IMG/VR virus record: IMGVR_UViG_2700989365_000011 | Reading direction: 5' to 3' (one strand) | Origin: a virus | Taxonomy: Duplodnaviria > Heunggongvirae > Uroviricota > Caudoviricetes | Length of the DNA stretch: 21,980 nt | Shown here: in pieces, positions 1-10,071 of the stretch | Layout: each line of letters starts with the position of its first letter | Numbering within the stretch: position 1 is the stretch's first letter | Notes under the pieces: generated by a model | What the model saw: only the letters and a program-made list of their open reading frames with translations | Database searches by the model: none | What the model was told of the DNA's origin: nothing | Position numbers and translations under genes: made by a program

Positions 1-1083
1 TCATTTTCTCTGGCTGATCTTTACCGGATAACCATCCCGAAGATCAATTAAGTGCTCCGGTTCAGAAGCAAACCATGCATAAGATCCCCACGCCAATTCT
101 GGTATTGCCTTTTTAAAAGGCAGAGCACTTCTGTCCATAAATGCCGTAAGGAATGCAAGATTTTTCTCGCTGAACCCAGCGTCAATAGCCAAATGAGTGA
201 GAGTAACTTTTCGTTCCCTGTTTATAGGCCCATCTGTCGCAACTACTTCAGTGAAAACTACAAGCATGTCCGAACCCGTTCGGTCCTCTCCCAAATCAAT
301 CAAAATAATATCTGGAAGTGCTTTTGAGGCATCAATATTCAGCCCCAATGCTTTTGCCAATACATCATCCTGAGCAACAACTTTATTCCCGGATTCAGAC
401 AACCAGAGCACAGTTGGATTCTTAAGAAAATTAGGAGCAAAAACTTCGATGACGGCCTTAGCTATTGTACTTGACGGGCCCGGAGCTAAAGTTCTCTTCT
501 CTCCATTTGGGAAAGTGACGACTACGGCATCAGCAGCAATCACTGCCCCTGATTTCAATAAACGCAACCTAGCAAGAGCGGCTTTGTTCAAATGATTTTC
601 TTGCCAGGAACTTATTGCACTCAGCAGCGAATCTCCTTCAAGCCCGGCATCAAAGAGTGCTGCAAAAGAGCGATTCAAACTGTAACGAGGACGAGAGGAT
701 GTGGTGGGTATACCTTTACGCTCAACAATTGCATTGCAAGGTATTAGGCCATTTTTTATAGTTTCATCACGTATTGGCTCACGCGTATTTTCCGCATACC
801 ATGCATCAGCAGGCCTTATCTTTTGTTTAGAGAAAGTCATCTTTACCCAGCTTTCTCTGGACGCATCATCAGTAAGAGCAGCCTGCGAATCTCCCATACT
901 TACAACCTGGCTGGGCCTTATCCATCGCCCCAGCCCCTCAACCGCACCAGCATAAAACATGACAAAAATTGTTTTTGCAGCTATTTCCCGAATTAAATAT
1001 CCACGATTCTCAGTCCCTTCAGGGAAAATTAATTGTAATCTTTCCCGGATAACATTCAATGGGGGAACAACAGGCAGATTCAT
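1..1083 (-). CDS. Putative type II restriction endonuclease, partner of the upstream methyltransferase (possibly BsuBI/PstI-like; family assignment uncertain)
   Basis: 360-aa ORF, complete (stop at 1-3). Its ATG overlaps the methyltransferase stop in an ATGA junction at 1080-1083, typical translational coupling of R-M pairs. No catalytic motif confidently identified by eye. Confidence 0.5.
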   Translation of the reverse strand: MNLPVVPPLNVIRERLQLIFPEGTENRGYLIREIAAKTIFVMFYAGAVEGLGRWIRPSQVVSMGDSQAALTDDASRESWVKMTFSKQKIRPADAWYAENTREPIRDETIKNGLIPCNAIVERKGIPTTSSRPRYSLNRSFAALFDAGLEGDSLLSAISSWQENHLNKAALARLRLLKSGAVIAADAVVVTFPNGEKRTLAPGPSSTIAKAVIEVFAPNFLKNPTVLWLSESGNKVVAQDDVLAKALGLNIDASKALPDIILIDLGEDRTGSDMLVVFTEVVATDGPINRERKVTLTHLAIDAGFSEKNLAFLTAFMDRSALPFKKAIPELAWGSYAWFASEPEHLIDLRDGYPVKISQRK

Positions 1084-2912
1084 GCAATCATCACTCCATA
1101 GAAACCAGCGATAGTTCTCTCAATAATCCGTCTGTGGACGCCAGCATCAATTAACGATTGAATCTCCATCACCTGCTCCAGAGAAGGCAACGGGATTGAA
1201 TTCAATTCATAGGCCGAAACAGCAACACTTCCGCTTATACACCTGAACGCCCGATCGACAACATGCGAATTAAGTAGCATATCAATAACATCAGGGCGAA
1301 CCGCAGAGAACAATCCGTTTGAATATACAATATTAATATGGTTTTCAACTACTACGCCACCAGTTTCATCTATAAATCCCTGAGGTAAAATTGCCGCTAA
1401 AATCCTTCTGTCCTGTTCCTTCGATGTTGTCCGCTGAACAAGCACACATTCAGATTTTGTCACAAGGAAACCCTGTTGTGGGGTTATATCGATATAGGGA
1501 ACATGATTTTTTCTGTCTGCACTAAAACGAAAACCAGCTGAAGTTATTGATTCCGCCCAGACTAATGGGTAGCTATTTTTTCCTTTCGTCGTACGCAACT
1601 GCGACTTAAATCGATTCCAGACTAACTGACCTGTAGAGACTGAGTATCCCAGATCAGCTAAACGCGTAGACATCTGTTTTAATACATTAAGAAAACAGGC
1701 ATCATCTTTAACGCGTGGCAAAAGCCACGTTGCTCCACCTTTTTCTATATCAACATTACCTATTTTCTCAATTTTTGCTTTGTTCAACCCCTTAGGGACA
1801 AGTGAGGATACCTGGGCCCGAACTTTATGTTCTCCCGCCTTGAATGCTGTCAACATTGTTTCCTGGAGAACATCGTCAAAGACCCCATCCCTGTCAGTGA
1901 CGAAATCAAGGGCATACGGAGTAGTTTTTTCGGTCAAAAGGGTTCGCAGCGCGGTGAAATACTGCCCACCAAGAAAAGAAGTTGGCGTAAGAAATGCAAT
2001 AACTCCTGTTTTCTCTTTAACCATGCGAACAGCTAAGTCGGTGAACAATCCATATAGATTTGCATGACCAAATAACGAACGAGAATATTTTTCTCTCGTT
2101 TTAATATCGAGAGTGACACGTCCGTAAGGCGGATTCCCTACCACAAGATCATAACCAGAAAATTTATCTTGCTGAAGCGCATCAGCAACAATAATTGTAT
2201 CTTCAGGCAATCTACGTTTTACCTTTACACATAGTGGCATTAGTACAGATTCGAGCAATACCAAACTCATCCAAGCCGCAAATGGATCGATCTCTATCCC
2301 CTTTAAACGACGACTGATTCTCCTCAACATCCATTCAGGGGAAGACCCCTTGTCTTTTTTTAACATTCGAATGGCTACTGGTGCCAAAAATGCACCGCCA
2401 CCACACGCAGGATCAATAACCGATGCATGAGAAAAATCAACACCAGACTTTTCAGCCAGGTCCAAGAGACGCGCTACCAAAGGTGGGGGGGTATAGTAAG
2501 CCCCCAATTCCGAACGGTAAGCGGATGGCAGCATTACCGTATAAATTGACCCAATCAGATATCCAGCGTCCTCCGCCGGAAATTGAGCAATAAGCTCACC
2601 TGTTCGTTCAGCGAGCTCGCGTGCATCACATGGAATGTCTTCTATGTAAACAGTGTGCGGTACTGCCCTCATTTTAATGCTGCTTTTTTGCTTTTTTGCA
2701 AGGGTATCCCAATATGCAGCTACGATGCTGAAGCAGTATGAGCGGGCATGCATCAACCTTGACTGCCCGGTTTTGTAATTGCCCGCATAACCTTTGGCCA
2801 TGGCTTTACAAGTTTGATATCTTTCCAGATTAGAAAACTCATTATCTGTAAAAAAATCAAAATGTTGCACATTCATAATGTAAAATCCTAATGTATCAAA
2901 CATGCGGGCCAT
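1080..2912 (-). CDS. N6-adenine DNA methyltransferase, gamma class
   Basis: 610-aa ORF with AdoMet-binding motif I (DPACGGGAFL) N-terminal to catalytic motif IV (VVGNPPYG). Motif order I then IV is the gamma-class arrangement; the long C-terminal region is consistent with a target-recognition domain. Confidence 0.85.
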   Translation of the reverse strand: MARMFDTLGFYIMNVQHFDFFTDNEFSNLERYQTCKAMAKGYAGNYKTGQSRLMHARSYCFSIVAAYWDTLAKKQKSSIKMRAVPHTVYIEDIPCDARELAERTGELIAQFPAEDAGYLIGSIYTVMLPSAYRSELGAYYTPPPLVARLLDLAEKSGVDFSHASVIDPACGGGAFLAPVAIRMLKKDKGSSPEWMLRRISRRLKGIEIDPFAAWMSLVLLESVLMPLCVKVKRRLPEDTIIVADALQQDKFSGYDLVVGNPPYGRVTLDIKTREKYSRSLFGHANLYGLFTDLAVRMVKEKTGVIAFLTPTSFLGGQYFTALRTLLTEKTTPYALDFVTDRDGVFDDVLQETMLTAFKAGEHKVRAQVSSLVPKGLNKAKIEKIGNVDIEKGGATWLLPRVKDDACFLNVLKQMSTRLADLGYSVSTGQLVWNRFKSQLRTTKGKNSYPLVWAESITSAGFRFSADRKNHVPYIDITPQQGFLVTKSECVLVQRTTSKEQDRRILAAILPQGFIDETGGVVVENHINIVYSNGLFSAVRPDVIDMLLNSHVVDRAFRCISGSVAVSAYELNSIPLPSLEQVMEIQSLIDAGVHRRIIERTIAGFYGVMIA

Positions 2913-3126
2913 AACATCTCATGGTGGCGCATAGCAAACTGGCCCGAAGAATATCACGCACCAAGTCGATCTCATAACCCGTTATGACAATAAATCTTTG
3001 TAGCTGAACTCACTTGGTGATTTGTCAATCATTCCTGGCCTCCAGTTCGTCCTGAATCTCTTTATCGAGTTCACCGTATTTGTTAGTCCTCATCACTCAC
3101 GACTTGACTTCCAGAAATAACCTTGA

Positions 3127-3483
3127 TTATTCGGGGCTATATTTTGTCACCCTGCGTATCCGCGCTTTCGCATTACGCTCAATCTGGATTAGCTTTTCTA
3201 TATTTTTTCGCCTTTCCCGCTCCTCCTGGCGCAAGAGCCTTACATCATCTGCCAGTCTGGTTTCTCTTTTCGCCACAGAGAGCATCCAGTCAAATGGCTC
3301 CACAACTGCACCGCAAATTTTACAGCGGACCTGACGCTCTTTTTCGTCAACCCGTACAGAGGCGTGATGGCAATATGGTCTTTCCGATGGCTCATAAAGA
3401 AAATTAACCTGATTACGAGGGTCATCCTCTTTTACCGGAAATAAAACGATATTGCTTAACTCATCTTCTGGTTTTATTTCCAT
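3127..3483 (-). CDS. Prophage protein of unknown function with Cys/His zinc-ribbon-like motif and basic coiled-coil C-terminus
   Basis: 118 aa from the ATG at 3483 (MEIKPEDEL...), with a GGAG-like Shine-Dalgarno upstream. The six-frame ORF extends to 3540 but that start abuts the upstream stop. Contains CHH...CKIC and an R/E/K-rich tail. No paralog in the Rac copy. Confidence 0.5.
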   Translation of the reverse strand: MEIKPEDELSNIVLFPVKEDDPRNQVNFLYEPSERPYCHHASVRVDEKERQVRCKICGAVVEPFDWMLSVAKRETRLADDVRLLRQEERERRKNIEKLIQIERNAKARIRRVTKYSPE

Positions 3484-3540
3484 GCTCCTCTCCTTTGATG
3501 CGAATGCCAGCGGTAATTGAAGCCTGATAGCTAATTTCAC

Positions 3541-7376: not shown

Positions 7377-7411
7377 TCAAAGTGATTAGCAATCTTATTA
7401 GAATTGGATGT

Positions 7412-7912
7412 ATGAAAAGAAAATCATTGTCAGACACCGACCTCAACGCCGCCAGAAGACTGAAAGAAATCTGGATGGCAAAGAAATCTCAGTTGGGATT
7501 GACTCAGGAACGTGCGGCGGAAATTATGGGGTTTTCAACACAAGGGGCGGTAAGTCACTACCTAAATGGTCAAACCCCACTAAACCTTGAGGCTGTTCTA
7601 AAGTTTGCTGGCTTACTGAAAGTTCCCCCTGAGTCAATCAGGCCAGACATGGTAGATTTGCTGCAAATTGCAAGGATGTATTGTCGAGAACCACAGCAAG
7701 ATAACATAGTCGCATTACCAGCAGACACAGAACAAACAGAGGATGAACTACCGTTTGCCGTAGAGCCGATGGAACGAGATTTAATCCATACGTTCAGAGC
7801 TTTTCCGAAAGAAGATCAAGAACACATGCTTCAGGAGATGAAAGATAAAAAAGAATCAATGGATCGTACGGTTGCGCGGTGGTTAGCTGCACAAAAAGGC
7901 CGTCGCGCCTAA
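7412..7912 (+). CDS. cI-like XRE-family HTH repressor without a recognisable C-terminal S24 peptidase domain
   Basis: 166 aa from the ATG at 7412 (MKRKSLSDTDL...); a GTG at 7382 is an alternative start. HTH region LTQERAAEIMGFSTQGAVSHYLNG. Immediately upstream of the toxin-antitoxin pair, as in repressor-antitoxin-toxin operons. Confidence 0.75.
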   Translation: MKRKSLSDTDLNAARRLKEIWMAKKSQLGLTQERAAEIMGFSTQGAVSHYLNGQTPLNLEAVLKFAGLLKVPPESIRPDMVDLLQIARMYCREPQQDNIVALPADTEQTEDELPFAVEPMERDLIHTFRAFPKEDQEHMLQEMKDKKESMDRTVARWLAAQKGRRA

Positions 7913-7931
7913 ATCAGAGGAGATATGTAAA

Positions 7932-8126
7932 ATGAGTACAGTCCTTTCCCCAATGGTTTCAGAATTTGAGACAGTTGAGCAAGAAAATAGTTACAACGAA
8001 TGGCTGCGGGCCAAAGTAGCAGCAAGCCTCGCGGATCCCCGCCCGGCGATTCCGCATGATGAGGTAATGGCGGAAATGGAACAAATTATTGCCCAAATTG
8101 CTGCTGCAACTCACAGAGGTGAATAA
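7932..8126 (+). CDS. Antitoxin partnering the ParE-family toxin (PaaA/ParD-like)
   Basis: 64 aa, GAGGAG Shine-Dalgarno 8 nt upstream. Its stop overlaps the toxin ATG (TAATG at 8124-8128). Confidence 0.65.
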   Translation: MSTVLSPMVSEFETVEQENSYNEWLRAKVAASLADPRPAIPHDEVMAEMEQIIAQIAAATHRGE

Positions 8127-8416
8127 TGTTACCCGTTTTATGGCTACCATCTGCTCGTGATGATTTGCGCCAGATCGTAGCCTACATAGCTAAAGAAAAT
8201 CCCGCGGCAGCACGCAGAATGAAAATTCGAATTGAAACATCCGTTTTGCCGCTCACAGAGCATCCTTACCTGTATCCTCCAAGCGAGCGAGTTCTTGGTC
8301 TTCGTGAAATTGTAACTCATCCTAACTACATCATCCTTTACCGAGTAACAGCATCAAGCATAGAAGTAGTAAATATTGTGCATTCTCGAAGACAGTATCC
8401 AGGCAAAAACAGTTAA
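8126..8416 (+). CDS. parE: RelE/ParE-family type II toxin
   Basis: 96 aa with the characteristic C-terminal pattern ...IILYRV...IEVVNIVHSRRQ. Translationally coupled to the upstream antitoxin. Confidence 0.8.
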   Translation: MLPVLWLPSARDDLRQIVAYIAKENPAAARRMKIRIETSVLPLTEHPYLYPPSERVLGLREIVTHPNYIILYRVTASSIEVVNIVHSRRQYPGKNS

Positions 8417-8515: not shown

Positions 8516-8696
8516 GTTTCAGGCGTCAACCCACCCCGCCCCACAGAATGCAGGGCAATACTTCGAGTTACCAGACAGTGGTCAGGGGTTAAGTAGCCAG
8601 CCCGAGGCGTAAGAACATGACGGCAGGGTTCAATCTTTAACTATGCAGCAGGTTTTTTGTTCCGCCACCCCGGCGTTAAGGGGAAATGAGGTCAGC

Positions 8697-8849
8697 ATGG
8701 ATACTATCGATCTTGGCAACAACGAATCTCTGGTGTGCGGCGTGTTCCCTAACCAGGATGGAACGTTTACCGCCATGACGTATACCAAAAGCAAAACGTT
8801 TAAAACCGAATCTGGCGCGCGTTGCTGGTTAGCCAGAAACACTGACTGA
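8697..8849 (+). CDS. YdaF-like small protein (homolog of Rac ydaF at 14670-14825)
   Basis: 50 aa (MDTIDLGNNESLVCGVFPNQDGTFTAMTYTKSKTF...), about 85% identical to the Rac-copy YdaF. GAGG Shine-Dalgarno upstream. Confidence 0.7.
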   Translation: MDTIDLGNNESLVCGVFPNQDGTFTAMTYTKSKTFKTESGARCWLARNTD

Positions 8850-9373: not shown

Positions 9374-9877
9374 TTATTGATAGTGTTTTATGTTCAGATA
9401 ATGCCCGATGACTTTGTCATGCAGCTCCACCGATTTTGAGAACGACAGCGACTTCCGTCCCAGCCGTGCCAGGTGCTGCCTCAGATTCAGGTTATGCCGC
9501 TCAATTCGCTGCGTATATCGCTTGCTGATTACGTGCAGCTTTCCCTTCAGGCGGGATTCATACAGCGGCCAGCCATCCGTCATCCATATCACCACGTCAA
9601 AGGGTGACAGCAGGCTCATAAGACGCCCCAGCGTCGCCATAGTGCGTTCACCGAATACGTGCGCAACAACCGTCTTCCGGAGACTGTCATACGCGTAAAA
9701 CAGCCAGCGCTGGCGCGATTTAGCCCCGACATAGCCCCACTGTTCGTCCATTTCCGCGCAGACGATGACGTCACTGCCCGGCTGTATGCGCGAGGTTACC
9801 GACTGCGGCCTGAGTTTTTTAAGTGACGTAAAATCGTGTTGAGGCCAACGCCCATAATGCGTGCAGTTGCCCGGCAT
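9374..9877 (-). CDS. insB: IS1 InsB (transposase frame; InsAB' is made by frameshifting)
   Basis: 167-aa ORF overlapping the 3' end of insA in a different frame. Confidence 0.9.
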
Positions 9878-10071
9878 CCAACGCCATTCATGGCCATATC
9901 AATGATTTTCTGGTGCGTACCGGGTTGAGAAGCGGTGTAAGTGAACTGCAGTTGCCATGTTTTACGGCAGTGAGAGCAGAGATAGCGCTGATGTCCGGCA
10001 GTGCTTTTGCCGTTACGCACCACCCCGTCAGTAGCTGAACAGGAGGGACAGCTGATAGAAACAGAAGCCAC
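9796..10071 (-). CDS. insA: IS1 InsA
   Basis: 91 aa, [40 protein letters not shown]... Confidence 0.95.

Follow-up and report, generated by a model that had tools for sequence, protein, structure and literature searches.

Two long, overlapping open reading frames lie downstream of the replication genes at one end of a lambdoid prophage, and they raise the question of whether they form a complete type II restriction-modification (R-M) system, and if so, to which family it belongs, which sequence it targets, and whether it is functional in its host. The stretch of DNA analyzed (the window) is a 21,980-nt IMG/VR record (IMGVR_UViG_2700989365_000011), and the host of the prophage is almost certainly Shigella sonnei. 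An initial annotation, which was made from the sequence alone, proposed that the two genes constitute a full R-M pair and left the identity of the second protein undecided. As detailed below, the pair is an additional member of a well-known R-M family, with no new mechanism.

Organization of the gene pair

Both genes are encoded on the minus strand. The gamma-class N6-adenine methyltransferase gene (positions 1080 to 2912; longest ORF, 610 aa; probable start at ATG 2876) precedes the nuclease gene (positions 1 to 1083; 360 aa), whose stop codon occupies bases 1 to 3 of the window. The start codon of the nuclease and the stop codon of the methylase share the tetranucleotide ATGA (1083 to 1080), an overlap that reads in the sequence with exactly the coordinates initially assigned to it. 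Within the methylase coding sequence, 10 nt 5′ of the nuclease ATG, is a Shine-Dalgarno-like GGAG (1097 to 1094) that may serve the nuclease gene. The 4-bp overlap implies that translation of the nuclease would be coupled to that of the methylase, and the stop-to-start distance lies mostly between −4 and +2 in 76 homologous pairs.

Judged by sequence, both ORFs are real genes rather than chance ORFs because each yields a full-length PADLOC match: MTase_II covers residues 7 to 608 of the methylase (E value of 1.8e-300), and REase_II matches the nuclease (E value of 2.8e-128). The two genes are separate, adjacent, and co-oriented, which is the layout of a type IIP system, and the proposal of a complete type II pair stands, with the partner protein recognizable as a BsuBI/PstI-family endonuclease by its Pfam and PADLOC assignments and by sequence and fold matches to SdaI. 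There is no gene for a C protein (a small helix-turn-helix controller) among the ORFs of the cassette. An upstream ORF encoding a 137-aa zinc-ribbon protein was considered as a third component and rejected, since it is part of the phage backbone and present in approximately 1,680 Escherichia coli genomes.

The nuclease

The profile search that the initial annotation had called for on both proteins places the nuclease domains well above the Pfam thresholds. The winged-helix domain PF17728 (BsuBI_PstI_RE_N) extends over aa 10 to 172 (106.6 bits against a cutoff of 27; E value of 1.2e-30), and the catalytic domain PF06616 (BsuBI_PstI_RE) over aa 188 to 349 (152.2 bits against a cutoff of 27; E value of 9.3e-45), such that a winged-helix DNA-binding domain at the N terminus is followed by a PD-(D/E)XK-type nuclease domain at the C terminus. 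SdaI (PDB accession number 2ixs) is the only relative by sequence in the PDB (E value of 1.8e-16) and also the only significant PDB fold match to the AlphaFold model of the nuclease (pLDDT of 91; E value of 1.6e-17). The global TM-score between the model and SdaI is only 0.40 to 0.45, a low value that is compatible with the two domains being modeled in a different relative orientation.

Among 82 homologues, 78 positions show at least 95% conservation, and the nuclease retains every one of them. Its predicted recognition helix, TREPIRDET (760 to 786, minus strand; aa 100 to 108), falls within helix 98-113 of the model and aligns with SREDFRKKT of SdaI and TRETFRRQS of an enzyme from Stx phages; going by the SdaI literature, we take this segment to be the DNA-recognition helix of the winged-helix domain. 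R101 and R105 are present in all of 54 diverse relatives, and E102 and D106 in nearly all. The predicted active-site residues (within 211 to 315, minus strand) are P257-D258 (315 to 310), E279 (249 to 247), and R291 (213 to 211), of which P257, E279, and R291 never vary among 54 relatives and D258 hardly does. In the model, D258 is situated just ahead of strand 259-263 and R291 at the start of helix 289-301, with E279 inside strand 274-280. The PD…E…R pattern is conserved over 54 to 73 diverse relatives and is common to the CTGCAG-type enzyme of Stx phages; by sequence, the nuclease has kept a catalytic variant of PD-(D/E)XK consisting of PD, the E in strand 3, and a downstream Arg. The missing catalytic Lys (SdaI has EAVK) was considered as a sign of decay, an idea that we rejected, as this Lys is absent family-wide, including from the Stx-phage enzyme.

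The methyltransferase

Pfam detects Eco57I (E value of 1.7e-13) and N6_Mtase (E value of 2.1e-9) domains in the methylase, and the closest solved structure is that of M.TaqI (E value of 3e-8). The initial assignment to the gamma class of N6-adenine methyltransferases, based on DPACGGG followed by NPPY, is borne out: motif I, DPACGGG (S-adenosylmethionine binding; 2394 to 2414; aa 167 to 173 in the 610-aa numbering), and the catalytic motif IV, NPPY (2124 to 2135; aa 260 to 263), are both present on the minus strand, with motif X, YYTPPP (2481 to 2498; aa 139 to 144), ahead of both. The X-I-IV motif order, together with a C-terminal recognition domain, marks the protein at the sequence level as gamma class, and 113 of 114 highly conserved positions are retained. 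The DNA encoding motif X contains a C7 homopolymer (2485 to 2491), and in one S. sonnei assembly (GCA_040189005.1), a 1-nt deletion in this run shifts the reading frame of the methylase next to an intact nuclease gene. Frameshifts of this type are typical long-read assembly errors; if this one is real, the nuclease in that assembly cannot be active.

Homologues begin at the position matching Met13 (MNVQHF, ATG 2876), which is preceded by a conserved TAGGA ribosome-binding site (2889 to 2885, minus strand) just within the 610-aa ORF, and a length of 598 aa is annotated in some database records. The true start is therefore probably ATG 2876, giving a protein of 598 aa. This start alters the description of the upstream region: the 214-bp intergenic gap initially noted (2913 to 3126) does exist, but the stretch that goes untranslated is probably about 250 bp. 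The methylase had also been credited with a long C-terminal extension, which turns out to be the normal target-recognition domain of the family. Residues 340 to 600 share homology with the recognition domains found in BsuBI-type methylases, residues 240 to 584 align to residues 119 to 465 of one such methylase (489 aa) encoded by Stx2a phages, and the 494-position PADLOC methylase model spans aa 131 to 602. The additional length amounts to approximately 100 to 120 residues and is located at the N terminus.

A cassette in a lambdoid prophage

The placement first suggested for the pair, on the same strand as and downstream of the replication genes at a position equivalent to the nin region, matches that in intact lambdoid relatives (E. 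coli FDAARGOS_943, VL7S7, and an IMG/VR lambdoid contig), in which the pair resides between the replication genes and DUF968-RusA-Q. The same nin slot is occupied by HokD and small ORFs in strain SK1144. The pair is thus cargo of the nin-equivalent slot in a Qin-like lambdoid prophage. The common prophage backbone, present in approximately 1,680 E. coli genomes, becomes recognizable by homology again only from around positions 3109 to 3123, and the GC content of the cassette is 43.6%, versus 51.7% in the replication genes. The pair and some 200 bp upstream constitute a low-GC add-on cassette, or “moron,” which has the position, the absence from homologous prophages, and the deviant base composition expected of nin-region morons. 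No terminal inverted repeats were found flanking the cassette in E. coli or S. sonnei.

The cassette-specific leader (2913 to 3110, minus strand) includes a 22-codon ORF (3092 to 3024) and is the candidate site of a promoter belonging to the pair. A consensus scan of the minus strand from 2877 to 3126 found no sigma-70 consensus, and no minus-strand terminator was found between the upstream operon and the pair; in other taxa, the leader is unconserved except for the ribosome-binding site. Because the DNA of the 214-bp gap belongs to the cassette, it is plausible that the gap carries the pair’s own promoter.

On the chromosome of S. sonnei, the nuclease gene is directly followed by IS1 and host genes, and IS1 is present at both ends of the prophage remnant, which still encodes a repressor. 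Unrelated lysogens of E. coli carry this cassette in intact form, and a 91%-identical version is present in another lambdoid phage. Thousands of S. sonnei assemblies have exact copies of the proteins (at least 1,000 contigs under that species name, with 4,192 index blocks), whereas of 5,426 complete E. coli genomes, just 2 do. Since S. sonnei is a young clone, this uniform intactness is not evidence of selection.

Among relatives, the methylase gene is immediately upstream of the nuclease gene and on the same strand at all 82 genome loci, as well as upstream in 31 of the 32 IMG/VR viral contigs that carry relatives, the exception beginning at a contig edge. Three loci combine this nuclease branch with a BsuBI-type methylase, and the phage database contains no DNA match to the pair. 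The initial view that complete pairs are comparatively unusual in prophages was overstated, given these 32 viral contigs, a related pair in a P2-like Serratia prophage, and a distant BsuBI/PstI pair (CTGCAG) published from Stx2a-converting phages (PMC3893438).

Target specificity

By analogy, CTGCAG is the likely target of the pair because a related pair in Xanthomonas oryzae matches a published unit assigned to XorKII (CTGCAG). Over nearly their full lengths, the nucleases are 55% identical and the methylases 47% identical (for the nuclease, the sequence compared was that of Xanthomonas phaseoli, which clusters with the X. oryzae protein at 90% identity). Inverted repeats of 65 nt (92% complementary) flank the X. 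oryzae pair, as does an 8-bp direct repeat. By these sequence features, the pair matches the transposon-like unit of X. oryzae KACC10331, which is reported to have an 8-bp duplication and 65-bp repeats that agree at 60 of 65 positions; its site is given as CTGCAG, citing XorKII (Furuta et al. 2010, PMC2853133). The short-branch EcoGIII/BsuBI type is also directed against CTGCAG (PMC3893438). The transfer of this site to the S. sonnei pair, which we regard as likely, draws on the 55% identity and on the citation chain to XorKII.

Palindrome counts are uninformative on this point. When all 64 six-base palindromes were compared over 1.34 Mb of flanking DNA from 80 carrier genomes, CTGCAG ranked 30th of 64 (observed/expected ratio of 0.86) and ATGCAT 32nd of 64; generic palindrome avoidance dominates in these flanks, with no signal of CTGCAG avoidance. 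The window contains 5 CTGCAG sites (5.2 expected), with none in the cassette, a count that is uninformative on specificity. Our search of the literature for an S. sonnei methylome or for this R-M system found nothing.

Proposed function and alternative explanations

We consider it highly probable that the pair is an ordinary two-gene type IIP R-M operon of the BsuBI/PstI family, situated on a long, XorKII-like branch, carried as a nin cassette, and likely directed against CTGCAG. The methylase would be translated first, and the ATGA overlap would couple translation of the nuclease to it. Most likely, the methylase converts the adenine in both strands of CTGCAG to m6A, and the nuclease would bind the same site via its N-terminal winged-helix domain and cut via its C-terminal PD…E…R domain, which in an active system would destroy incoming unmethylated phage or plasmid DNA. 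With IS1 and host genes directly following the nuclease gene in a decayed prophage, the R-M system is now effectively chromosomal in S. sonnei and almost species-wide.

Two alternatives accept the family assignment and differ as to activity or target. It is possible, if doubtful, that the pair is a silent or partly dead relic, either untranscribed in a repressed remnant or comprising an inactive nuclease with a persisting methylase, which looks intact because the clone is young. The pair closes the early-right operon, and the prophage retains its repressor gene; the leader lacks a sigma-70 consensus, S. sonnei genomes are rich in IS1 (which flanks both ends of the remnant) and show much gene decay, and in one assembly, the methylase gene is disrupted while the nuclease gene next to it is intact. 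That frameshift, however, falls in the C7 homopolymer; otherwise, there is no inactivating change, all conserved nuclease positions and all but one of those in the methylase being kept, and the cassette, which contributes a 200-bp leader and ribosome-binding sites of its own, is found unbroken in unrelated lysogens of E. coli and recurs at 91% identity in another lambdoid phage. A functional pair of the same family with a site other than CTGCAG, such as a TGCA-core sequence like ATGCAT or an extended, SdaI-like CCTGCAGG, is on the unlikely side. SdaI itself, which recognizes the 8-bp sequence CCTGCAGG, shows that specificity can change within the family, the identities to the X. oryzae and EcoGIII-type pairs are just 55%/47% and approximately 26%, respectively, and the recognition helix carries D106 in this branch alone, with R or K at that position in the enzymes for CTGCAG and CCTGCAGG. 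Conversely, R101, E102, and R105 of that helix are conserved throughout, the close (XorKII) and distant (EcoGIII/BsuBI) branches are both assigned to CTGCAG, and members of this nuclease branch are sometimes partnered with BsuBI-type methylases.

The remaining alternatives question the type II assignment. The methylase has weak matches to BREX PglX, MADS, and type IIG models and is labeled “HsdM family” in RefSeq, which could place it in a larger defense system (BREX/PglX-like, type IIG, or type I). This is very improbable, as the BREX, MADS, and type IIG matches are confined to the catalytic core and reach 16 to 79 bits against cutoffs of 353 to 900, the best full-length match is to a stand-alone type II methylase model, and no other defense genes are adjacent in the lambdoid, P2-like, chromosomal islet, or X. 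oryzae contexts. Least credible of all is an orphan methyltransferase with a non-nuclease partner, a reading that the initial annotation had allowed for and that the Pfam, SdaI, and active-site evidence refutes: the partner matches both BsuBI/PstI domains as well as the sequence and fold of SdaI, and it keeps PD…E…R.

With the type IIP operon as the preferred reading, the significance of the pair is modest. A larger role, in which we place only tentative belief, would be either that of an active pair serving S. sonnei, nearly throughout the species, as a barrier and addiction module or that of a new, non-CTGCAG specificity in the PstI family. If the former is true, post-segregational killing would explain why IS1-mediated prophage decay halted approximately 200 bp past the nuclease gene, and activity of the pair would help to explain phage and plasmid traffic in S. 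sonnei that is distinct from that in E. coli, which is hardly ever a carrier. A PstI-like system in essentially all S. sonnei and almost no E. coli would affect transformation and cloning efficiency, the host range of phages used in therapy, and the interpretation of m6A in long-read data. One R-M cassette is found in several vehicles (the lambdoid nin region, a P2-like prophage, the inverted-repeat unit of Xanthomonas, and chromosomal islets), and the S. sonnei example is one in which it outlives the prophage that delivered it.

Comparison with known systems

M.TaqI shares with the S. sonnei methylase the X-I-IV motif order, the NPPY catalytic loop, and a C-terminal recognition domain, but the similarity is limited to aa 241 to 337 of the latter, and M.TaqI is a 421-aa enzyme with the site TCGA. 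For the nuclease, the only solved relative, SdaI, has the same two-domain architecture of winged helix and nuclease, with approximately 20% identity; it has no counterpart to roughly the first 75 residues of the S. sonnei nuclease and carries EAVK where the S. sonnei branch has an invariant EVVA.

The EcoGIII/BsuBI/PstI systems have in common with the S. sonnei pair the Pfam nuclease family, the methylase-then-nuclease operon, carriage by lambdoid prophages in E. coli and Shigella, the PD…E…R pattern, and the recognition-helix residues. The EcoGIII-type proteins, however, are only about 26% identical and are shorter (489 and 317 aa). The Stx2a-phage pair has no DNA-level similarity to the S. 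sonnei pair and directly follows the cI repressor gene, whereas the S. sonnei pair is in the nin region.

The XorKII-type unit of X. oryzae pv. oryzae is on the same long branch, with a gamma methylase of approximately 600 aa followed by a nuclease of approximately 360 aa in the same orientation and with identical Pfam domains. The X. oryzae nuclease itself is 364 aa long. The unit is inserted between lipA and prc, spans 3.2 kb, and has 65-bp inverted repeats and an 8-bp duplication as its boundaries; no terminal inverted repeats were found around the X. phaseoli plasmid copy. Unlike the XorKII unit, the cassette of S. sonnei and E. coli is without terminal repeats and occupies the nin region of a prophage.

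A predicted restriction-modification pair of the PstI/BsuBI family

Judged from its sequence, the gene pair at the start of the window is an intact restriction-modification pair of type IIP; it belongs to the long, XorKII-like branch of the PstI/BsuBI family and is already automatically annotated. The gene layout given in the initial annotation is seen in the DNA: on the minus strand, a methylase ORF (2912..1080; 610 aa, the longest ORF) bearing the expected motifs and a nuclease ORF (1083..1; 360 aa, its stop codon being window bases 1 to 3) overlap at an ATGA (1083..1080), with GGAG 10 nt 5′ of the nuclease start codon. At least 1,000 contigs carry the exact protein sequences, whose clusters are named almost entirely Shigella sonnei, and 4,192 index blocks list the nuclease; the pair DNA is present in only 2 of 5,426 complete E. 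coli genomes and has no DNA-level match in the phage database.

The 360-aa partner, left unidentified in the initial annotation, matches PF17728 (HTH domain) at aa 10 to 172 (E = 1.2e-30) and PF06616 (catalytic domain) at aa 188 to 349 (E = 9.3e-45), the two Pfam domains defining BsuBI/PstI restriction endonucleases, which place it among those enzymes, and a PADLOC type II REase model matches it end to end (2.8e-128). Its sole solved relative, SdaI (PDB accession number 2ixs; sequence E = 1.8e-16), is also the only PDB match (E = 1.6e-17) for an AlphaFold model derived from 54 relatives (mean pLDDT of 91). The relatives (n = 54) show no variation at P257, E279, or R291 and almost none at D258, and all four residues occupy positions in the model that a PD-(D/E)XK fold requires. 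SdaI reads PD…EAVK, whereas the nuclease reads PD…EVVA, but we rejected loss of a catalytic lysine: the SdaI-type Lys is also absent from 73 diverse representatives (31 to 56% identity) and from the BsuBI-like enzyme of Stx2a phages, all of which have in common the PD, the third-strand Glu, and an Arg about 12 residues on. The partner is thus a nuclease and not some other protein, since it matches the family and keeps 78 of 78 positions conserved at ≥95% among 76 to 82 homologues (113 of 114 for the methylase).

The methylase carries YYTPPP (aa 139 to 144), DPACGGG (aa 167 to 173), and NPPY (aa 260 to 263), an X-I-IV order, as in gamma-class N6-adenine methyltransferases. Assignment to BREX or type I systems was rejected, the matches being weak, limited to the catalytic core, and far under cutoffs. 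The long C-terminal extension attributed to this protein does not hold up: residues 240 to 584 align to 119 to 465 of the 489-aa BsuBI-type methylase from Stx2a phages, and a 494-position type II methylase model spans residues 131 to 602, so that the additional length sits at the N terminus. Homologues in Serratia and Erwinia, like those on 20-odd viral contigs, have a start equivalent to Met13 (MNVQHF; ATG at 2876), with a conserved TAGGA just before it; because of this shared start, and because several records annotate 598 aa, the true methylase is probably of that length, leaving a noncoding gap upstream of about 250 bp.

Every relative with readable upstream DNA has a homologous methylase gene immediately upstream on the same strand, an arrangement found at 82 genome loci, from Proteobacteria to Chloroflexota and Acidobacteriota, and on 31 of 32 IMG/VR viral contigs, the remaining contig beginning at the nuclease gene. 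The spacing from stop to start is mostly −4 to +2, and neither a controller protein nor other defense genes were found beside the pair in any context examined. At five loci (L037, L039, L063, L128, and L129), long-branch nucleases (46 to 60% identical) are partnered by a short BsuBI/EcoGIII-type methylase; those of L037, L039, and L063 are 31 to 36% identical to the Stx-phage methylase and only 25 to 28% to that of S. sonnei. The methylase partner has evidently been exchanged between lineages.

Prophage setting

The pair is carried as a moron in the nin region of a Qin-like prophage that has since decayed. Its proposed placement in the nin region, after the replication genes, is borne out in E. 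coli FDAARGOS_943 and VL7S7, where it lies inside a complete lambdoid prophage (the whole prophage is shown for FDAARGOS_943) in the order replication genes, DUF977, 119-aa zinc-ribbon ORF, pair, ParDE pair, DUF968, RusA, and Q; this slot is the nin region. An IMG/VR lambdoid contig whose replication module is of another kind (DnaT-like protein plus lambda P) likewise has a 91%-identical pair before DUF968 and Q, at the equivalent position, and the corresponding slot of strain SK1144 carries DUF7167, small ORFs, and HokD in place of the pair. Because the common prophage-backbone homology, found in approximately 1,680 E. coli genomes, resumes only at about 3109 to 3123, the cassette comprises both genes plus a leader of about 200 bp; its GC content is 43.6%, versus 51.7% for the replication genes. 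The view that a complete pair is unusual as phage cargo is contradicted by the 32 viral contigs, a P2-like Serratia prophage with a 75%-identical pair between gpA and the portal gene, and the published Stx2a cassette.

On five large chromosomal contigs (4.8 to 5.0 Mb; protein clusters named S. sonnei), host genes follow within about 200 bp of the nuclease gene, with IS1 called between them in three of the five; the whole late region of the prophage is therefore deleted there. From their Pfam content, we read these genes as probably ydfI-ydfZ-ydfH-ydfG-dcp, the Qin prophage flank in K-12. In the intact prophages, a ParD/ParE toxin-antitoxin pair (L001, 19386 to 19960; L005, 7386 to 7960; L014, 11124 to 11698) lies about 40 bp past the nuclease stop on the opposite strand, so that one cargo slot holds two addiction-type modules back to back; in S. 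sonnei, ParDE is no longer called past the nuclease, and IS1 fills the space.

Elsewhere in the window, an IS1 at about 9374 to 10071 (transposase ORF 9374..9877; Pfam DDE_Tnp_IS1, 5.9e-78) fuses two prophage remnants in head-to-tail order. The left one is Qin-like and holds the immunity, replication, and restriction-modification genes; the right one is Rac-like, with int, recE, sieB, and ydaU/ydaV-type replication genes (by domain, DUF977, DUF1627, DnaC-like, DUF1376, SieB, RecE, and integrase), and is cut just past its DUF977 gene. Within the 137-aa zinc-ribbon ORF (3127..3540), positions 3355 to 3448 hold four substitutions in 94 bp relative to five other S. sonnei chromosomes, which are otherwise identical across the cassette; the cluster resembles a short tract converted from a paralogous prophage copy. 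The repressor gene (7382..7912, plus strand) adjoins a ParE-family toxin ORF (8126..8416, plus strand), which a PaaA2-type antitoxin gene precedes in matching S. sonnei loci; this region (7382 to 8416) gives the remnant a further toxin-antitoxin module.

Expression and integrity

Since the leader (about 2913 to 3110) belongs to the cassette, a promoter of its own is plausible; no sigma-70 consensus was found on its coding strand, and no terminator was found between the pair and the upstream operon. Of the leader, other taxa conserve only the ribosome-binding site. It also contains a 22-codon ORF (3024 to 3092, minus strand; MRTNKYGELDKEIQDELEARND), whose stop codon overlaps a TTGACA hexamer (3028..3023).

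The PPP codons of motif X form a C7 run (2485 to 2491). In one S. sonnei assembly (GCA_040189005.1; L012 around 8610 to 8720), a 1-nt deletion in this run splits the methylase gene in two, with the nuclease intact, most likely an assembly error of the long-read homopolymer type; were it real, either the nuclease would be inactive there or the run would be a slippage hotspot.

Predicted target site and comparison with known systems

XorI, XmaII, and XphI are old PstI isoschizomers from X. oryzae, X. malvacearum, and X. phaseoli, and proteins of X. oryzae, X. phaseoli, and X. citri pv. malvacearum fall in the long branch; clustering at 90% identity groups the X. phaseoli member with proteins of X. 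oryzae pv. oryzae, X. euvesicatoria, and X. campestris. In X. oryzae, the pair, made up of a 603-aa methylase and the nuclease, forms an insertion that separates lipA from prc and is bounded by 65-nt inverted repeats, 92% complementary, and the 8-bp direct repeat AGTGAGTG. These imperfect repeats (L096, 2855 to 2919 and 6031 to 6095) enclose a unit of about 3.2 kb with no transposase inside. It matches the transposon-like unit of X. oryzae KACC10331, with 65-bp repeats (60/65 matching) and an 8-bp target duplication, for which Furuta et al. 2010 give the site CTGCAG, citing biochemical characterization of XorKII (PMC2853133).

The S. sonnei proteins share 55% (nuclease) and 47% (methylase) identity with this Xanthomonas branch along nearly their whole length. 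Because of this identity, because the far more distant EcoGIII/BsuBI branch also has the site CTGCAG (PMC3893438), and because three loci join a long-branch nuclease with a BsuBI-type methylase, we consider CTGCAG the most likely target of the S. sonnei pair, with fairly good confidence. An analysis of whether carrier genomes avoid six-base palindromes yielded no signal. The pair matters in practice to those working on S. sonnei genetics and phages but will not surprise a specialist. A distant BsuBI/PstI cassette occurs in Stx2a prophages, and its carrier strain has 98.8% of CTGCAG sites methylated (PMC3893438); unlike the S. sonnei pair, to which it is only about 26% identical, it lies directly after cI.
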